This document shows positions 1-6,325 of a stretch of DNA of 6,325 nt, piece after piece (within the stretch, counting starts at the first letter, position 1; every line of letters starts with the position of its first letter). The translations under genes and the position numbers were made by a program. Source of the DNA: a virus (lineage: Duplodnaviria; Heunggongvirae; Uroviricota; Caudoviricetes); IMG/VR virus record IMGVR_UViG_2579779052_000006; one strand, written 5' to 3'. The notes beneath the pieces are model-generated. The model saw only the letters and a list, made by a program, of their open reading frames with translations. It ran no database searches and was not told the origin of the DNA.

Positions 1-1131
1 TCAAATGACCAGTTTTTTCCATTCCTTACCGCGTGCGTCGTTGTAAATATCGGTCATTTTTTGATTCGAATGGCCTAGCAAAATTTTGGTATCAACCCCC
101 TGCTCTCTGAACAATCGCTCTGATAAAGATCTCTGCTCATGGAAAGAGGGAGGGGTGCCATTAGCACGCCAGTTGTAATCCACAGAATCCCGGGCTTTTT
201 TAAATGCAACGGTTAATGTTGCTGGCTTAACCATCCCGCCGCGCTTAGCTGTCCCTTTCGCGTGATGGTGGTGCAATAGCCACGGACTAAGAACGCAATC
301 GCGGCAGGATGACACTACATCATCCAGGGTGAGATTTAATTTATCGCAACGCAGAGCCAGAGGGATGGCAATCCGGGTTCCTGTTTTTTGCTGTTCGACA
401 TGAAGATAACCATCCCGGATATCCGAAAATTGCATTTTGCAAATATCTGAAAGGCGCTGGCCTGTCATCAGTGCCAGCAGCATACCGCGCTGTAAAAAGT
501 AACCATCCTTTTCCGCTGCGTTATAAATCATCATCCACTCATCAAAAGTCAGTCGCTGTCTTGATATCCGCACCTGCGGTTTTTTTGCCGATTCTGCAGG
601 GTTAAAGCCTGGCGGGACATCGCCCGTTTGCTGAGCTTCCCGGAAAACATCGATCAGTACTTTCCTGAAAATTTGTCCCATTCTGTTATGTCCTCTGGCC
701 TTGTACTCTTCCAGTACTGATACCACATCTTTTACGGTTATGGCATCTAACGGTCTGGTGCCAAAACGTTCATCAAATACCCTGAGAGGGGCCGCTTTCT
801 GTTTCAGCGTGTTGAGTTTGATCTCGCCGTTTTCATATCTTTCCTGTTGAATTTTTCTGTAATTATTCAGAAAAATGGTAACGGTTGATGAACCGCCGGT
901 ATCACTAATAATTTTCTCCTGCAGACTGAGCATTTGTTCCATTTGCTGCCGGGCAAGACGGCTGTTCGCTTCTGCTGCAATAGTTTCTGCCAGTTTCTGG
1001 TCAATACTGCCGAGACCGTGATTTTTGCCTGTTATGGGATGCCTGTAACGCCAGTAAACTTTGTTATTTCTTTTGTCAAAATACGGAGATAATCCCGGAA
1101 CATCGGTTTTATATTTTCGCGGGCGCGCCAT
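1..1131 (-). CDS. int: Lambda-family tyrosine integrase (site-specific recombinase), 376 aa, complete
   Basis: Full-length ORF with stop at 1..3. Translation aligns by eye along its length with phage lambda Int as I recall it; the C-terminal catalytic region carries the expected residues (TGQRLSD arginine, FHEQRSLSERL His-x-x-Arg, LLGHSNQKMTDIY with the tyrosine nucleophile, then DARGKEW). Start codon overlaps the 3' end of xis, as in lambda. Confidence 0.93.
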   Translation of the reverse strand: MARPRKYKTDVPGLSPYFDKRNNKVYWRYRHPITGKNHGLGSIDQKLAETIAAEANSRLARQQMEQMLSLQEKIISDTGGSSTVTIFLNNYRKIQQERYENGEIKLNTLKQKAAPLRVFDERFGTRPLDAITVKDVVSVLEEYKARGHNRMGQIFRKVLIDVFREAQQTGDVPPGFNPAESAKKPQVRISRQRLTFDEWMMIYNAAEKDGYFLQRGMLLALMTGQRLSDICKMQFSDIRDGYLHVEQQKTGTRIAIPLALRCDKLNLTLDDVVSSCRDCVLSPWLLHHHHAKGTAKRGGMVKPATLTVAFKKARDSVDYNWRANGTPPSFHEQRSLSERLFREQGVDTKILLGHSNQKMTDIYNDARGKEWKKLVI

Positions 1132-1357
1132 CTTCCAGTATCCTCTTCAAAGCAGGGTGATCTGTGGCGATCACCTCCGGCTTGTTTACCATTCCGACAA
1201 AGCGAGCTTGCGGATCCACTCGCCAGCGTCTCCCAACTTTTTTGGGGAGAGGAAATATCATTCCGGCTTTAGCGTATTTACTTAACGTACTCGGAGTAGG
1301 GACCGGTTCACTGAATTCCTCTTTTGCCCACTCAGTGAGCAGAATAAGTCTTGCCAT
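1109..1357 (-). CDS. xis: Excisionase (lambda Xis-like), 82 aa
   Basis: N-terminal region (LILLTEWAKEEF ... STLSKYAKAGMIFPLPKKVGRRWRV) parallels recalled lambda Xis (YLTLQEWNARQRR ... ETVRRWVRECRIFPPPVKDGRE). Sits immediately upstream of int on the same strand and overlaps it by 23 bp (1109..1131). No obvious Shine-Dalgarno before the ATG at 1357..1355. Confidence 0.85.
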   Translation of the reverse strand: MARLILLTEWAKEEFSEPVPTPSTLSKYAKAGMIFPLPKKVGRRWRVDPQARFVGMVNKPEVIATDHPALKRILEDGAPAKI

Positions 1358-1421: not shown

Positions 1422-3896
1422 TTAAAAATCAGCCTGATTCGGGATCAGTTTTTGCCAGATAACTGAAACGTATTTTGCCTGGTAACGGGCGTCATCAAGT
1501 GCATTATGGCGCTCACCTTCGAATGGAATAGCCGTTCTGGCATCGAAGTCTATGGCTTTCCCCAGCTCAACGATTGTGCGTACATCGCGATCGTTGTAGT
1601 AACGCCATGGGCAGGGGATCCCCTGCCGTTCGTATGAACGGCGCAAAATCGTGTTGTCGAAGTTGGCTCCATTTCCCCAGACCTGAACAAAAAATTCGCC
1701 GGAGTTTTCGTCGATAAATTCCCGCAATTGCAGCAGTGCATCATCTAACGGGATTTCATCGGTCAGAATGGCAGATTGCGCCTCCCGTGATTGCTTAAGC
1801 CACCATTTAATGGTGCCACGATCAATGACTCCGCCAGCAGTATCCATATCGATGGTCTTACTAAATTCCGGCCCCATATCTCCGGTTTGCGGATCGAAAA
1901 ATATTGCACCTATTGAGATAAGCGGGGCATCGGGATTTTTTCCCATGGTTTCAAGGTCGATCATCATGTGGTGCCACATTCTGCTGGTGGATGTGATAAC
2001 GTGATGACCGTTCATCGCAATTAAGGGATCTGCCGTCTCGCCAGTTTCACTATCGCTGGCGTGATCCTGAGCGCTACCAGCATTCTCCTTGTGTGGATGT
2101 TCAGCGCCTTCCATTTCCTTCGGATCATTTTCCTGAACTTCAACCTGATTCTCTTCATCGAATGTTTCCTGGTATGTTGCGTCACCCATCACCGCGCCAC
2201 AATCAGGGCAGTTGCCGCCACCGCTTTGACCGCAGGCGGTGCAGACTTTTTCCACTTCCTGTTGCGCCACTGGTTCAGGCTGTTTCGTTTCTGGCTCGTT
2301 TTGTAACGCATTTGGGCTGTTTTGTTCCGCTTTCTGGCCGTTCTGTTCCGTTTCTTGCTGGTTCTGATTCACTGAATCGCGGGTTTCAATCCCCTTCACC
2401 CATTTCGGATCATTCGGGTCGCTAATCCCTGCAACAAATTCACCACGTGATACAGCAAGCAACTTATTGGCGTCAGGCTGGCTGATATTGGCTGCCTGCA
2501 TAATTTTGTTTACTTCGTCAGCGGTAACTTTTACCGGCTCTGGTTGTGCGATCGTGTCAGATGCACCAGTATTTTGTTGTGAACCTGAGTACGTGCCGTT
2601 TTTACGTGCGAAGTATTCCTCTTTTGTGATTTCCGTAGCTCCCAGGGCCAGTGCTTTTTCCAGACCAGAAAGTTTGTTTGCGCGACCGTATTTTTCGCCG
2701 TCCTTATCGGTGAAAAGGAAGTAGAACGGTCCCTCACGCTCTACAGATGGTTCGTCTTCCACTTCGCATTCGGTTTTTTCGTTGTCCGGCATTGCCGTTT
2801 CCACTGCATCAGTTTTTGGTACTGGTGACGGGAGAGTACCAGCTGTGCCCTGATTTGTTCCTTCGTCATCTTCAAACACGCCCTTGGTAGTCAGGTATTC
2901 AGTGATGTATTTGTTCAGTGCTACGGGATCTTTGTGAATGTCGATCGGACGCTCACGGACAAGGCCAAAAATAGTCTGACGGTCGTAGCGAACGGCATCG
3001 GGTTGTTTGCGCATTGATGCGGAAATGCGCTTCCAGTCTTCGCGATCTTTGTCGATAACTTCATTTTTTGCCCAGCGATGGATGCTGCCGTCAATGTTTC
3101 CGGTATCAATATCGCCAGGCCAGAGAGCGTAGGCCAGTTCTTCATCCAGCGTTTTCCATGTCTGCTTGTATTCGCGACAAATGGCGGCAGTGACTGGGTT
3201 GATTTTTCCTGCTGAGTTTTCAGTGTTCTGTTGATTGACTCTGGCGCTGGCGAGATCAACAACAGACGTGTATTTTCCAGTCTCTTTGCGCTCTGCGTCC
3301 TGCCGTTTTTTCCAGTTACGTAATTCAGCCTGAATTTCGGGCCATTTGGCACCCGGATTACATTTGTGTTTAACCCATCCGATAGCGAACAGTTTGCGTT
3401 CCGGATACATAGCGTTAATTTCAGGCGTTTTCATCAGTGCTTCAACGATATGCCCGTCAAAGGTAGCAACGTCTTCCTGCAGTAATTCCTGCGCGTCAAT
3501 CGCCATATCAACGGTGATGTTTTCACATGTACCGAACTTAACCAGGACCGCGTTCTGTACTTCAAGGGACAGCTTGTCAAAATTGACGTTCATCGGATCG
3601 GATTCTGGTTCGACCGGAATAAAGGAAGCGGATTCCTCATCCCAGCGGTTTTCCTGCATATATTCAGCATCCCAGGAATCGAGGGCAGGGCGGGGTATAC
3701 CGGGTTTATCCTCGCAAACAAGAAATTTATAAGCGCAGTCCTGAGCAGCCGGATAATGTTCCAGGAATTGCCAGTGAAATTTTGCGCGGGCGCGACGTTC
3801 ATCACCGGCTTCAATGGCAGTGGCTACAGCGACGGCACCTTCTTCCTTTATTGCCTGTTCGTCCGGAATGGCGGCGCAAATAAAGACTTTACTCAT
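1422..3896 (-). CDS. Large prophage exonuclease, 824 aa, with a C-terminal DnaQ-like DEDDh 3'-5' exonuclease domain; of the type usually annotated 'exodeoxyribonuclease VIII-like' (ExoD/YdfE-type) in lambdoid prophages
   Basis: Single 2.4-kb ORF with GAGG 11 nt upstream of the ATG at 3896..3894 and TAA stop at 1422..1424. The C-terminal ~190 aa carry the three DEDDh motifs: MMIDLETMG (Exo I, about 1950..1960), WGNGANFDNT (Exo II) and HNALDDARYQAKY (Exo III). A CxxC-x7-CxxC zinc-ribbon-like motif (CTACGQSGGGNCPDCG, about 2199..2243) and an acidic/Gln-rich linker precede it. The internal motif KLLAVSRGEFVAGISDPNDPKWVKG resembles, from memory, a conserved RecE-family segment. Position between the dicB module and xis matches the exo slot of Qin/DLP12-type prophages. 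Confidence 0.85.
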   Translation of the reverse strand: MSKVFICAAIPDEQAIKEEGAVAVATAIEAGDERRARAKFHWQFLEHYPAAQDCAYKFLVCEDKPGIPRPALDSWDAEYMQENRWDEESASFIPVEPESDPMNVNFDKLSLEVQNAVLVKFGTCENITVDMAIDAQELLQEDVATFDGHIVEALMKTPEINAMYPERKLFAIGWVKHKCNPGAKWPEIQAELRNWKKRQDAERKETGKYTSVVDLASARVNQQNTENSAGKINPVTAAICREYKQTWKTLDEELAYALWPGDIDTGNIDGSIHRWAKNEVIDKDREDWKRISASMRKQPDAVRYDRQTIFGLVRERPIDIHKDPVALNKYITEYLTTKGVFEDDEGTNQGTAGTLPSPVPKTDAVETAMPDNEKTECEVEDEPSVEREGPFYFLFTDKDGEKYGRANKLSGLEKALALGATEITKEEYFARKNGTYSGSQQNTGASDTIAQPEPVKVTADEVNKIMQAANISQPDANKLLAVSRGEFVAGISDPNDPKWVKGIETRDSVNQNQQETEQNGQKAEQNSPNALQNEPETKQPEPVAQQEVEKVCTACGQSGGGNCPDCGAVMGDATYQETFDEENQVEVQENDPKEMEGAEHPHKENAGSAQDHASDSETGETADPLIAMNGHHVITSTSRMWHHMMIDLETMGKNPDAPLISIGAIFFDPQTGDMGPEFSKTIDMDTAGGVIDRGTIKWWLKQSREAQSAILTDEIPLDDALLQLREFIDENSGEFFVQVWGNGANFDNTILRRSYERQGIPCPWRYYNDRDVRTIVELGKAIDFDARTAIPFEGERHNALDDARYQAKYVSVIWQKLIPNQADF

Positions 3897-3991: not shown

Positions 3992-4180
3992 TTATCCAGC
4001 CGGTGTTTCGTTATTCAGGTACAGCGATACTTTTTTTAGCGGGAGGCATTCACCAGAAATTTTTTGCTCGTCTCTTGCCTGGAGGCAGGATTCTTTACTT
4101 GCATAAATTCCGGTAATCACATTCTGTGATTCACCCGTTATAAGAAAAACCGTCATCATCAGTGCAAATGCTGAAGTCAT
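3992..4180 (-). CDS. ydfD: YdfD-like small lysis protein, 62 aa, with N-terminal hydrophobic segment
   Basis: 62-aa ORF with hydrophobic N-terminus (MTSAFALMMTVFLITG), similar in length and composition to E. coli Qin YdfD (63 aa) as I recall it. GGAG sits 7 nt upstream of the ATG at 4180..4178, and the start overlaps the dicB stop (ATGA at 4177..4180), indicating translational coupling. Confidence 0.7.
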   Translation of the reverse strand: MTSAFALMMTVFLITGESQNVITGIYASKESCLQARDEQKISGECLPLKKVSLYLNNETPAG

Positions 4181-4365
4181 TGACGTTCTCCGAAAATACC
4201 AAGTTCAAGAAGAGCAATTCGGGAAAGTATGGAATTATCATTGAGCAGATAAGGCTCATATTTCCTCATATTAATGGCATCTTCAGTAAACTCCCGGTTA
4301 CTGAGCAGAACACCAATATCAAAACAACCTTCAGACGTATTAACGTTTGGTAATAACGTTTCCAT
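4177..4365 (-). CDS. dicB: DicB cell-division inhibitor (MinC-activating), 62 aa
   Basis: Translation METLLPNVNTSEGCFDIGV...FTEDAIN.RK... matches the recalled N-terminus of E. coli DicB (62 aa). GAGGA lies 7 nt upstream of the ATG at 4365..4363. Located directly downstream of the DicF sRNA on the same strand, as in the Qin dicB operon. Confidence 0.82.
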   Translation of the reverse strand: METLLPNVNTSEGCFDIGVLLSNREFTEDAINMRKYEPYLLNDNSILSRIALLELGIFGERQ

Positions 4366-4543: not shown

Positions 4544-4586
4544 AAAAAGGGCGGCAGAGCAGTCACGGAGTAAAACTGATACCGCC
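4544..4586 (-). terminator. Intrinsic terminator forming the DicF 3' end
   Basis: On the minus strand, GGCGG (4586..4582) can pair with CCGCC (4554..4550), followed by a TTTTT run (4548..4544). The exact stem register was not folded. Confidence 0.5.
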
Positions 4587-4601
4587 AAATGTCACCAGAA
4601 A
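4544..4601 (-). ncRNA. dicF: DicF small regulatory RNA (Hfq-dependent antisense sRNA that targets ftsZ and other mRNAs)
   Basis: Minus-strand sequence TTTCTGGTGACATTTGGCGGTATCAGTTTTACTCCGTGACTGCTCTGCCGCCCTTTTT is near-identical to the E. coli K-12 DicF sequence as I recall it, apparently differing by one base (GACATTTGG here, GACGTTTGG recalled). It ends in a GC-rich stem plus U5 and sits between the upstream operon genes and dicB. Confidence 0.8.
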
Positions 4602-4936
4602 ATTGATAACAGAGGGCGTTGTAGCGGGGTTGTCACTTAAGCGTATGGTCAACCTGACAACCCGGTGCATTTTCTGGAGCAATGGAGGAAACCCCAGCCA
4701 TACTTACCGCCGCGCCATTTCGCGGAGTGCCACAACCGGAAGCGCACGGTCGAACTAAATTTAACGACACCGTACAGAGAGACCAATTTCGCCGTGCGCT
4801 TTCGCGTTATGCCCTGACTTTTCAGGGACATATCCTTTCAGTAAGCTGTCAGTGCCGGATGCTCACCCGTGTCCGGCGCACGCACTCCACCTGACCCGTG
4901 GAGAACTCCTTAATTACCAACCCTCAGGAGGGTGAA

Positions 4937-5215
4937 ATGGATAAAAAGCAAATTGAGGCCCTGCAATCTATTATTGAAGAACAAGATGAAGCTATCAGGA
5001 TTCTTTCATATCGCACTGATATGATACTAAATATGCTTTCTGCATTAACGGCTGCGCTTGGTGGTACAAAAACAAACGTATACCGCGAAGTTGTTATTCA
5101 ACAGATAGATAAATTTGAAAAAACCATACCAGGTATTAATGCTCATCTTGCAGAACAAGAGAAAGACCATGCTCTTATGGCAATTTCTTCAGTAGCTCTC
5201 CCGAAAGTTGAGTAG
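4937..5215 (+). CDS. Hypothetical 92-aa protein, the only plus-strand gene, embedded antisense in the dicB-type operon
   Basis: Strong Shine-Dalgarno AGGAGGG (4926..4932) about 5 nt before the ATG at 4937; open frame to TAG at 5213..5215. The track ORF begins at an upstream GTG (4898) with no SD. The product (MDKKQIEALQSIIEEQDEAIRIL...) is predicted helical at the N-terminus and is not recognised. The region is AT-rich, where long open frames are less likely by chance. Confidence 0.45.
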   Translation: MDKKQIEALQSIIEEQDEAIRILSYRTDMILNMLSALTAALGGTKTNVYREVVIQQIDKFEKTIPGINAHLAEQEKDHALMAISSVALPKVE

Positions 5216-5588
5216 TTTTAATTGTTGTTTTGAAATAATCACTGCTTTCACATTTGAGTGATTTCATGGCAATCCAAATGCGGGCCTCTGTGCCTGCATT
5301 TGGTTCCAGTTGCTGTAGACGTTTTGCGTCTTCCAAAAGTAAGGCGATAATGTGTTTCAGCTTCTCATCATTTGCTTGATTCTTGTTTTCAGGCGAATTC
5401 TGTCCGCCGAATAGGCGCTTCTCTTCATACAGACCTATAAAGGCACGACGCACGTTACCGGATATAGTATCGATGGTTTCCTTTTCTACGGTACTCAGGT
5501 CAAGAGTCGCCAGTTGAGAGCGAACCACATTCGATGCCATTTCCTGGAATGGTACTGGTAAATCTTTAAATTCCATCGTCAACCTCAT
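5175..5588 (-). CDS. Hypothetical 137-aa protein, second gene of the operon
   Basis: ORF start ATG overlaps the stop of the upstream small gene (TGATG at 5588). An alternative start four codons in (MEFKDL..., ATG 5576..5574) has GAGG 6 nt upstream. Product not recognised; the N-terminal ~40 aa may correspond to a YdfB/YdaG-like small protein, which I cannot verify. The 3' end overlaps the convergent plus-strand ORF by 41 bp. Confidence 0.55.
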   Translation of the reverse strand: MRLTMEFKDLPVPFQEMASNVVRSQLATLDLSTVEKETIDTISGNVRRAFIGLYEEKRLFGGQNSPENKNQANDEKLKHIIALLLEDAKRLQQLEPNAGTEARIWIAMKSLKCESSDYFKTTIKTTQLSGELLKKLP

Positions 5589-5740
5589 CAGTCAGTGTTT
5601 CTGGTTAACCAGCGACGCGCGCCAGCTTCAGTTTTAAACGTTTTGCTTCTGGTATACGTCATCGCGGTGAACGTACCGTCCTGGTTGGGGAACACGCCAC
5701 ATACCAGAGATTCGCTGTTGCCAAGATCGATAGTATCCAT
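5588..5740 (-). CDS. Small YdfA/YdaF-like (DUF1391-type) prophage protein, 50 aa, first gene of the dicB-type operon
   Basis: Internal ATG at 5740..5738 with GAGG 5 nt upstream gives a 50-aa product (MDTIDLGNSESLVCGVFPNQDGTFTAMTYTRSKTFKTEAGARRWLTRNTD). This matches the size and, from memory, the sequence character of E. coli YdfA/YdaF (51 aa). The longest ORF instead starts at 5821 (77 aa), also with a GAGG 9 nt upstream, so the start is ambiguous. Confidence 0.6.
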   Translation of the reverse strand: MDTIDLGNSESLVCGVFPNQDGTFTAMTYTRSKTFKTEAGARRWLTRNTD

Positions 5741-5922
5741 GCTGACCTCATTTCCCCTTAACGCCGGGGTAGCGGAACAAAAACCTGCTGCATAGTTATT
5801 AAAGTTGAACCCTGCCGTCATGTTCTTACGCCTCGGGCTGGCTACTTAACCCCTGACCACTGCCTGGTAACTCGAAGTATTGCCCTGCATTCTGTGGGGC
5901 GGGGTGGGTTGGTATGAAAAGA

Positions 5923-6007: not shown

Positions 6008-6030
6008 GGTAATGACTCCAACTTATTGAT
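6008..6030. repeat. IS1 terminal inverted repeat (about 23 bp, the insB-proximal end)
   Basis: GGTAATGACTCCAACTTATTGAT matches the canonical IS1 terminal repeat. Confidence 0.8.
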
Positions 6031-6325
6031 AGTGTTTTATGTTCAGATAATGCCCGATGACTTTGTCATGCAGCTCCACCGATTTTGAGAACGACAGCGA
6101 CTTCCGTCCCAGCCGTGCCAGGTGCTGCCTCAGATTCAGGTTATGCCGCTCAATTCGCTGCGTATATCGCTTGCTGATTACGTGCAGCTTTCCCTTCAGG
6201 CGGGATTCATACAGCGGCCAGCCATCCGTCATCCATATCACCACGTCAAAGGGTGACAGCAGGCTCATAAGACGCCCCAGCGTCGCCATAGTGCGTTCAC
6301 CGAATACGTGCGCAACAACCGTCTT
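6023..6325 (-). CDS. insB: IS1 transposase InsB, C-terminal part (N-terminus lies beyond the window end)
   Basis: Translation ...[88 protein letters not shown] matches the recalled InsB C-terminus. The reading frame stays open to the window edge. Confidence 0.9.

Follow-up and report, generated by a model that had tools for sequence, protein, structure and literature searches.

We analysed a 6,325-nucleotide stretch of Caudoviricetes DNA (IMG/VR record IMGVR_UViG_2579779052_000006; "the window" refers to the whole of this stretch) and, within it, a prophage gene that encodes an 824-amino-acid (aa) protein. Judged from its sequence, the C-terminal domain of this protein is, with high confidence, a DEDDh 3'-5' exonuclease and not a RecE-type nuclease. 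The complete protein is a mosaic of three parts: a YdfE-type N-terminus (aa 1-256), a RecE-homologous centre (approximately aa 262-627) and the DEDDh domain (aa 643-814). By alignment, its gene is the intact orthologue of Escherichia coli K-12 ydfE. We read the product as a predicted 3'-5' DNA-end exonuclease of a repressed early-left operon, a solo nuclease and not a RecET-type recombinase (probability roughly 0.6). The open reading frame (ORF) and the parts of its product are as follows (pLDDT, predicted local distance difference test score; dN/dS, ratio of non-synonymous to synonymous substitution rates).

1422-3896, minus strand: exonuclease ORF, 824 aa, ATG start (ORF list)
3597-3896, minus strand: N-terminal alpha/beta domain (YdfE_N region), aa 1-100 (predicted model)
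3285-3584, minus strand: predicted helical domain (YdfE_C region), aa 105-204 (model pLDDT ~82-94)
2868-3164, minus strand: predicted helical domain weakly similar to RecE aa ~278-360, aa 245-343 (BLASTP against RecE; model pLDDT ~76-91; dN/dS 0.14)
2592-2738, minus strand: predicted beta-hairpin/helix mini-domain, GPFY...GRANK...EI, aa 387-435 (model pLDDT ~81-88; dN/dS 0.04)
2020-2467, minus strand: block common with Rac RecE aa 456-591, aa 477-626 (76% over 448 nt; BLASTP; partial NF007259 match at aa 448-627)
2199-2243, minus strand: zinc ribbon CxxC-x7-CxxC (C552, C555, C563 and C566), aa 552-566 (motif; weak Pfam DZR match)
1455-1970, minus strand: DEDDh 3'-5' exonuclease domain (PF16473, DexA/Rv2179c-like), aa 643-814 (Pfam, PDB sequence match, model, invariant residues)

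The exonuclease domain and the mosaic protein

A sequence-only reading of the window had proposed a DnaQ/DEDDh-type C-terminus on the basis of three motifs (IDLE, GxNxxFD and HNALDDA), and this assignment held. PF16473 (Rv2179c-like 3'-5' exonuclease) matches aa 643-814 over profile positions 2-177 of 177 (E = 4.7e-66; 222.3 bits against a cut-off of 27), and the motifs lie at aa 646 (IDLE; D647 and E649), aa 741 (GNGANFD; D747) and aa 797 (HNALDDA; H797 and D802). These five residues are invariant in all 37 homologues compared (56-98% identity), and they align with D7, E9, D119, H186 and D191 of T4 DexA, which is also a member of PF16473. The legend to Fig. 5 of the DexA paper gives D7, E12, D119, D191 and H186 (PMC12153337); in our reading the second catalytic residue is E9, since residue 12 of DexA is a glycine. 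A PDB sequence search with the whole protein returned T4 DexA alone (8kel/8ken, E = 5.6e-6) and nothing for the N-terminal 640 aa. The expected DnaQ fold was also supported by structure prediction: an AlphaFold model of aa 631-824 (pLDDT 88.3; predicted template modelling (TM) score 0.85) had T4 DexA as its top match in a Foldseek search against the PDB (8kel; E = 1.6e-12, TM score 0.75), with RNase T, Orn and DnaQ domains ranking next. Proteins of 180-190 aa that consist of the DEDDh domain alone (P0060, P0063, P0076, P0077, P0079, P0082 and P0105) are 57-86% identical to the window domain and begin at a methionine equivalent to M645 of the window protein; they may be encoded by separate genes or be internal-start products of a long gene.

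The sequence-only reading had further noted an internal segment that recalls RecE, and alignment with Rac RecE located it. BLASTP against K-12 RecE aligns only aa 262-627, to RecE residues 278-592 (E = 6e-62; 39% identity overall), and the similarity is near-identical from approximately aa 478. At the nucleotide level, positions 2020-2467 are the only part of the window with similarity to Rac and end exactly at the nuclease boundary. The block that they encode (aa 477-626) holds a conserved GEFVxGISDPNDPKWVKGI motif, a Gln/Asn-rich linker (33% Q+N over aa 500-548), the zinc ribbon and an acidic linker (24% D+E over aa 573-640), with the mosaic junction at the 3' end of the block. The zinc ribbon and the acidic/Gln-rich linker had been put forward as part of an unusual architecture; they do precede the DEDDh domain but are not distinctive, as they are found almost residue for residue in Rac RecE, where aa 517-531 carry the identical cysteine pattern. 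Because they lie inside the block common with RecE, they are RecE features and not peculiar to the window protein, and we rejected the zinc ribbon as a distinguishing feature.

Catalytic domains separate the two proteins. By Pfam, the window protein contains neither PF12684 (the RecE PD-(D/E)XK nuclease) nor PF06630 (Exonuc_VIII), both of which were found in the K-12 RecE control (PF12684 at aa 615-850, E = 4e-28). The NCBIfam RecE equivalog NF007259 scored 281 bits against a cut-off of 1269 and matched only aa 448-627; the name "exodeoxyribonuclease VIII" is therefore a mislabel, as had been suspected, in line with the predicted DEDDh catalysis and the lack of recT. It persists in several phage GenBank records, and the RefSeq/PGAP names have already been corrected to "3'-5' exonuclease", "exonuclease" or "3'-5' exoribonuclease". 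Rac RecE (b1350) thus resembles the window protein in its early-left operon slot by xis and int and in a homologous centre with a near-identical zinc ribbon, GEFV motif and acidic linker, but it differs in having PD-(D/E)XK catalysis (aa ~606-866), a PF06630 N-terminus and a recT neighbour, where the window protein has a DEDDh domain, a YdfE-type N-terminus and no recT. The window protein has, in addition, the GPFY mini-domain, and its predicted polarity is opposite.

The 824-aa protein is 100% identical to RefSeq WP_032280780.1, named "3'-5' exonuclease", for which precomputed Pfam annotation gives YdfE_N (PF27430), YdfE_C (PF27432) and the Rv2179c-like domain. Its first 256 residues are 88% identical to those encoded by ydfE (b1577), a pseudogene of the Qin prophage in K-12; together, this match and the YdfE_N and YdfE_C assignments identify the gene as an intact ydfE. 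K-12 ydfE is cut by IS2 after residue 256 and retains nothing beyond, including the nuclease, whereas the window gene is complete; the neighbours of the two genes are the same (dicF, dicB, ydfD, ydfE and int).

Structure prediction assigned the N-terminal region in part. The model of aa 1-445, for which 40 diverse sequences were used (mean pLDDT 76), contains four confident folded blocks with disordered linkers between them, but a structure search with it gave no informative or significant fold match. In the predicted mini-domain at aa 387-435, residues R387, G389, P390, F391, Y392, G404, R405, N407, K408, G419, E422, I423 and K432 are invariant across the 40 sequences. This mini-domain is not present in K-12 RecE and sits in a gap of the RecE alignment.

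Module exchange, selection and prevalence

A HMMER search with aa 1-626 yielded 252 representative relatives, the parts of which were assigned by local BLAST against reference segments; a homologue search with aa 1-480 gave only sequences that were at least 99% identical, and a profile of distant relatives was used instead. Four combinations of termini occur among the relatives. A YdfE-type N-terminus is joined either to a DEDDh domain, which is the architecture of the window protein, or to a RecE-type nuclease (P0251 and P0311, with PF12684 confirmed by Pfam), and a RecE-type N-terminus is likewise joined either to a DEDDh domain (P0250, which has PF06630 and is 100% identical to K-12 RecE over its first 200 aa) or to the RecE nuclease. 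By these sequence assignments, members of the family exchange their N- and C-terminal modules freely.

A further large class of approximately 780 aa is built on the YdfE scaffold and comes from prophages of Enterobacter, Klebsiella, Kosakonia and Citrobacter (for example, L096 6001-8370 and L098 5650-7986; proteins P0255, P0249, P0253 and P0390-P0484). Many of these proteins are named "exodeoxyribonuclease VIII" in the records, and Pfam detects neither a DEDDh nor a RecE nuclease domain in them. Their C-terminus is conserved, with the motif KKSLTDAxKKALSxLGF; weak matches to Rad52_Rad22 recur in 17 of 40 sequences (best E = 0.0044), and comparison of the C-terminus with the PDB returned nothing, either as a single sequence or as a profile. 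The gene is followed by an overlapping Sipho_Gp157 or "Mu Gam-like" gene. Judged by the weak Pfam matches only, we tentatively regard the class as a Rad52-like annealase fusion mislabelled as an exonuclease; the "RecE-2" proteins mentioned in PMC12315714, which lack a nuclease, may be the same class. Another variant of the YdfE scaffold (P0246, 702 aa; L099 6001-8109; phrog_26058) lies beside ompW in Enterobacter; its C-terminus of ~250 aa has no match in Pfam, and there is no partner gene between the P0246 gene and xis/int.

Computed against the allele of phage Tritos, dN/dS is 0.04-0.19 in every folded block (0.08 in the zinc ribbon region, aa 546-572, and 0.19 in the DEDDh domain) and 0.4-0.9 in the linkers. 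All folded blocks are under purifying selection. Of 80 related viral loci, 71 have an intact ORF of 810-831 aa. Among 5426 complete E. coli genomes, 4073 (75%) carry DNA of the DEDDh module, at 7461 places and with up to 7 per genome, and 1736 (32%) carry DNA for a RecE nuclease domain of the K-12 type, at 1827 places. The DEDDh module is thus found in more than twice as many genomes and in four times as many copies as the RecE nuclease. In records of the PPompW prophage of enterohaemorrhagic E. coli O26 type (L127 1676-4143, PPompW_132418 and sisters), the orthologue is annotated as a frameshifted pseudogene, which means that some resident prophages, at least, can do without the gene.

A Rec module without an annealase, and its neighbourhood

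The exonuclease gene is flanked directly by xis (1109-1357) and by the DUF1482/ydfD gene (3992-4180), and the lack of a bet- or recT-like annealase partner, noted in the sequence-only reading for the interval up to the dicB module, extends beyond the window. Neither the ORF list nor Pfam gave an annealase ORF between the gene and its neighbours in the window, and none is present in the annotations of the identical L001 prophage (through to the lysis genes) or of the complete PPompW prophage. Searches by tblastn for RecT, lambda Bet, P22 Erf, lambda Exo, Gam and Abc2 found none of them at any of 83 DEDDh-type loci (80 IMG/VR loci plus L001, Tritos and vB_EcoS-640R1), with a positive Rac control. 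The N-terminus is YdfE-type at 62 of these loci and RecE-type at 20, and nearly all continue into ydfD-dicB.

This arrangement resembles one described previously. A paper that covers the Rec modules of lambdoid phages (Genome Res 2025, PMC12315714) states in its main text that some of them contain DnaQ-like 3'-to-5' nucleases, enzymes that usually inhibit recombination. It also defines one class of module that has a nuclease and lacks an annealase, a single-stranded-DNA-binding protein (SSB) and anti-RecBCD functions, in Chi-rich genomes, with phage Tritos as its prototype. Tritos has a homologue of the window gene, TRITO_27, with 89% identity and the same order of genes around it. The window likewise has a nuclease in an early-left operon without a gene for a single-strand annealing protein or an anti-RecBCD function; SSB was not searched for. 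The main text of PMC12315714 contains no RecE-scaffold fusion, no combinatorial exchange of modules and no biochemistry. Chi octamers (GCTGGTGG) occur twice on the plus strand of the window and not on the minus strand, at positions 1394 (in the gap between xis and the exonuclease gene) and 1983 (in the DEDDh coding region). Plus/minus counts are 7/4 in the 21-kb prophage part of L001 (15001-36007), 7/0 in a 22-kb segment of Tritos and only 3/1 in 44 kb of the PPompW relative; the counts of the window prophage and of Tritos may fit the published link between missing anti-RecBCD functions and Chi richness.

The window corresponds to the left arm of a lambdoid prophage whose integration site is beside ompW (ompW is adjacent in L001). 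Its other features are listed here.

1-1131, minus strand: integrase, lambda-type (Pfam Arm-DNA-bind_1 and Phage_integrase)
1109-1357, minus strand: excisionase gene xis, directly downstream of the exonuclease gene (Pfam Exc; RefSeq annotation)
3992-4180, minus strand: DUF1482/ydfD-like gene, directly upstream of the exonuclease gene in the same operon, K-12 ydfD being in the equal position (Pfam DUF1482)
4177-4365, minus strand: dicB, cell-division inhibitor, same operon as the exonuclease gene (Pfam DicB, E = 6e-37)
4549-4600, minus strand: DicF small RNA, same operon as the exonuclease gene (Rfam RF00039, 77 bits; gathering score 48)
4898-5215, plus strand, and 5175-5588, minus strand: overlapping ORFs of 105 aa and 137 aa (both hypothetical proteins in RefSeq)
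5588-5821, minus strand: DUF1391/ydfA-like gene (gene list of the window)
6008-6325: end of an IS1 copy (terminal repeat GGTAATGACTCCAACTTATTGAT...; InsB fragment at 6023-6289)

The gene order is that of the K-12 cryptic prophage Qin (ydfA, ydfB, ydfC, dicF, dicB, ydfD, ydfE, int). Transcription of dicB-ydfD-ydfE in Qin starts from the dicB promoter, which is under repression by DicA (bioRxiv 10.1101/2024.09.21.614188). The exonuclease gene is the last large gene of a repressor-controlled early-left (dicB/pL-type) operon in a lambdoid prophage of Qin/PPompW type. A promoter scan found no sigma-70-like promoter directly upstream of it, which is weak negative evidence only. The 105-aa and 137-aa ORFs, which lie between DicF and the DUF1391 gene, have no Pfam match. 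The IS1 insertion falls within the stop-codon region of a cI/DicA-like repressor gene, as seen by comparison with the IS-free allele in L001.

Function, alternatives and meaning

On derepression or induction, the protein would be made together with DicB, DicF and YdfD. It would remove nucleotides from 3' ends by a two-metal mechanism, most likely from DNA 3' tails or duplex ends. We consider DNA the likely substrate, because T4 DexA, its nearest relative of solved structure, is a DNase and because the same scaffold otherwise bears a double-stranded DNA (dsDNA)-end exonuclease or an annealase. The N-terminal region of RecE has no known function and enhances linear-linear recombination (PMC11611040); by analogy with this boost to end-to-end recombination, the non-catalytic scaffold would direct the nuclease towards a partner or towards DNA ends. 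The enzyme would then work as a solo nuclease beside host RecBCD/RecA in phages that lack anti-RecBCD functions, and not as half of a RecET/Red exonuclease-annealase pair, the neighbouring recT presumably having been lost together with the RecE nuclease. A biological role as a solo nuclease alongside host recombination functions is proposed tentatively, at somewhat less than even odds.

Several points weigh against this reading. Polarity and substrate (DNA or RNA) are predicted from family membership only; Rv2179c, which gives PF16473 its name, is an exoribonuclease by Pfam name, and the next-best structural matches of the domain, RNase T and Orn, are mainly RNases. The N-terminal 445 aa have no informative fold match, and the targeting role of the scaffold is therefore suggested by analogy with RecE. 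According to the main text of PMC12315714, 3'-5' DNA exonucleases usually inhibit recombination, which makes a pro-recombination role for such an enzyme less than obvious, and that text does not state the nuclease type of Tritos.

Comparison with DexA raises superinfection exclusion as an alternative. T4 DexA is a 3'-5' DNase, and its E. coli homologue EcD digests 5-hydroxymethylcytosine (5hmC) DNA and T4 DNA and protects cells against T4 (Nucleic Acids Research 2025, PMC12153337); Escherichia is the commonest genus with DexA homologues, and the classical role of T4 DexA is scavenging of host DNA (PMC12153337). The window domain and T4 DexA (8kel/8ken) have PF16473, the DEDDh residues and a phage origin in common, and DexA is the top structural match of the modelled domain, but DexA is only ~25% identical, stands alone with 227 aa, belongs to a virulent phage and has extra loops. 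The DexA residues for 5hmC recognition, W152 and D169, correspond to Y and K in the window protein, the D169 column lying in a variable loop where the correspondence depends on the alignment. A search of viral contigs with the EcD forward primer recovered a standalone EcD-like DexA homologue of 189-193 aa (beginning MIDTETLGNGPDAA...) in another mobile element, by a 326-aa gene and a 700-840-aa gene (loci L103, L108, L118, L119, L121 and L124). It is 39% identical to the window domain, has the same catalytic residues, and shows A78 at DexA D90, a retained W152 and E at D169, which matches the published description of EcD. The reverse-primer sequence had 0 matches in viral contigs; the C-terminal end of the EcD-like protein differs, and EcD itself was not recovered.

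An HREX/EcD-type nuclease in this prophage would shield the lysogen from incoming T-even phages by selectively digesting their modified (5hmC-type) DNA. In its favour are the membership of T4 DexA in the same Pfam family, the activity and protective effect of EcD, the 39% identity of the 189-aa EcD-like protein, and the carriage of the module by prophages together with its occurrence in 75% of complete E. coli genomes, in the genus where DexA homologues are commonest. The residues that define the class nonetheless fail here: the EcD-like proteins are standalone, have lost D90 (a tetramerisation residue in DexA), retain W152 and are acidic at D169, whereas the window protein keeps D90 and has Y and K at the other two positions. 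By the criteria of PMC12153337, its sequence is not that of an HREX enzyme. Furthermore, the gene comes last in a lytic operon under repressor control and lacks a promoter-like site of its own, the PADLOC defence models give no match to the protein, and a 640-aa RecE-type scaffold under purifying selection would be superfluous for a simple exclusion nuclease. We regard this alternative as unlikely.

About as unlikely, and if anything slightly more so, is a 3'-5' exoribonuclease of Rv2179c/RNase T-like kind that would trim RNA 3' ends, for instance to process or turn over operon RNAs including DicF or to degrade host RNA at induction. The name of the Pfam family and the label "3'-5' exoribonuclease" in many NCBI records point this way, as do the strong structural matches of the modelled domain to RNase T, Orn, REXO2 and ERI and an operon shared with the processed small RNA DicF. 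M. tuberculosis Rv2179c has PF16473 and DEDDh chemistry in common with the window protein, but it is standalone, not phage-borne and more distant than DexA; it is found neither among the PDB sequence matches (E <= 1) nor in the top 50 Foldseek matches, and the nearest solved relative is the DNase T4 DexA. The gene also lies in a Rec-module slot, and in sibling proteins the identical scaffold bears a dsDNA exonuclease or a probable annealase.

The sequence-only reading had suggested host takeover or anti-defence, which, together with nucleotide scavenging, would have the enzyme erase DNA 3' ends of the host or produced by its defences (single-stranded DNA (ssDNA) tails, multicopy single-stranded DNA or RecA substrates) during lytic growth. 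We consider this improbable. The scavenging role of DexA offers a precedent, expression would be restricted to induction, and these phages lack anti-RecBCD proteins of the Gam/Abc type; there is, however, no co-occurring endonuclease, degradation of host DNA is not known for temperate lambdoid phages, and anti-defence proteins are usually small and early, whereas this gene is the last before xis. Literature searches for a phage DEDDh exonuclease in anti-defence, and for exodeoxyribonuclease VIII with a dicB prophage, found nothing. That the legacy annotation is right, and the protein a RecE-type 5'-3' dsDNA exonuclease VIII in a RecET-like pathway, is barely credible despite the name in several GenBank phage records, the RecE homology of aa 262-627 and the common genomic slot, as the RecE catalytic region (aa 606-866, PF12684) is replaced, the RecE equivalog hidden Markov model falls short by ~1000 bits and recT is missing; with the PD-(D/E)XK catalytic domain absent, we rejected a RecE-type 5'-3' enzyme at the level of sequence.

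The architecture is conserved and extremely common but only moderately novel, given that databases already assign the domain and that the main text of PMC12315714 names both DnaQ-like nucleases and a nuclease-only module. New here are the exact position of the mosaic junction, the recognition that the gene is an intact ydfE, the free recombination of N- and C-terminal modules, and the prevalence figures. The gene is among the commonest of E. coli prophages and is often labelled RecE-type in phage records; K-12 keeps only an IS2-truncated stump of ydfE, which is probably why it has been little studied. Mining of "RecE" homologues for recombineering would catch proteins of opposite predicted polarity and without an annealase. 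The exchange of modules on a common scaffold provides a handle on a long-open question, the role of the 600-aa non-catalytic part of RecE. More speculatively, the RecE/YdfE scaffold could be a general platform for targeting DNA ends or partners with swapped effectors (a 5'-3' exonuclease paired with RecT, a lone 3'-5' exonuclease, or a Rad52-like annealase that has a Gam/Gp157-like partner) exchanged among lambdoid phages, the DEDDh version serving as a 3'-tail eraser that tunes or blocks RecA/RecBCD-Chi functions of the host or ssDNA-sensing defences at induction; we give this idea a low probability. If it is true, the commonest E. coli form, the one with the DEDDh domain, would represent a distinct strategy that does not promote single-strand annealing.

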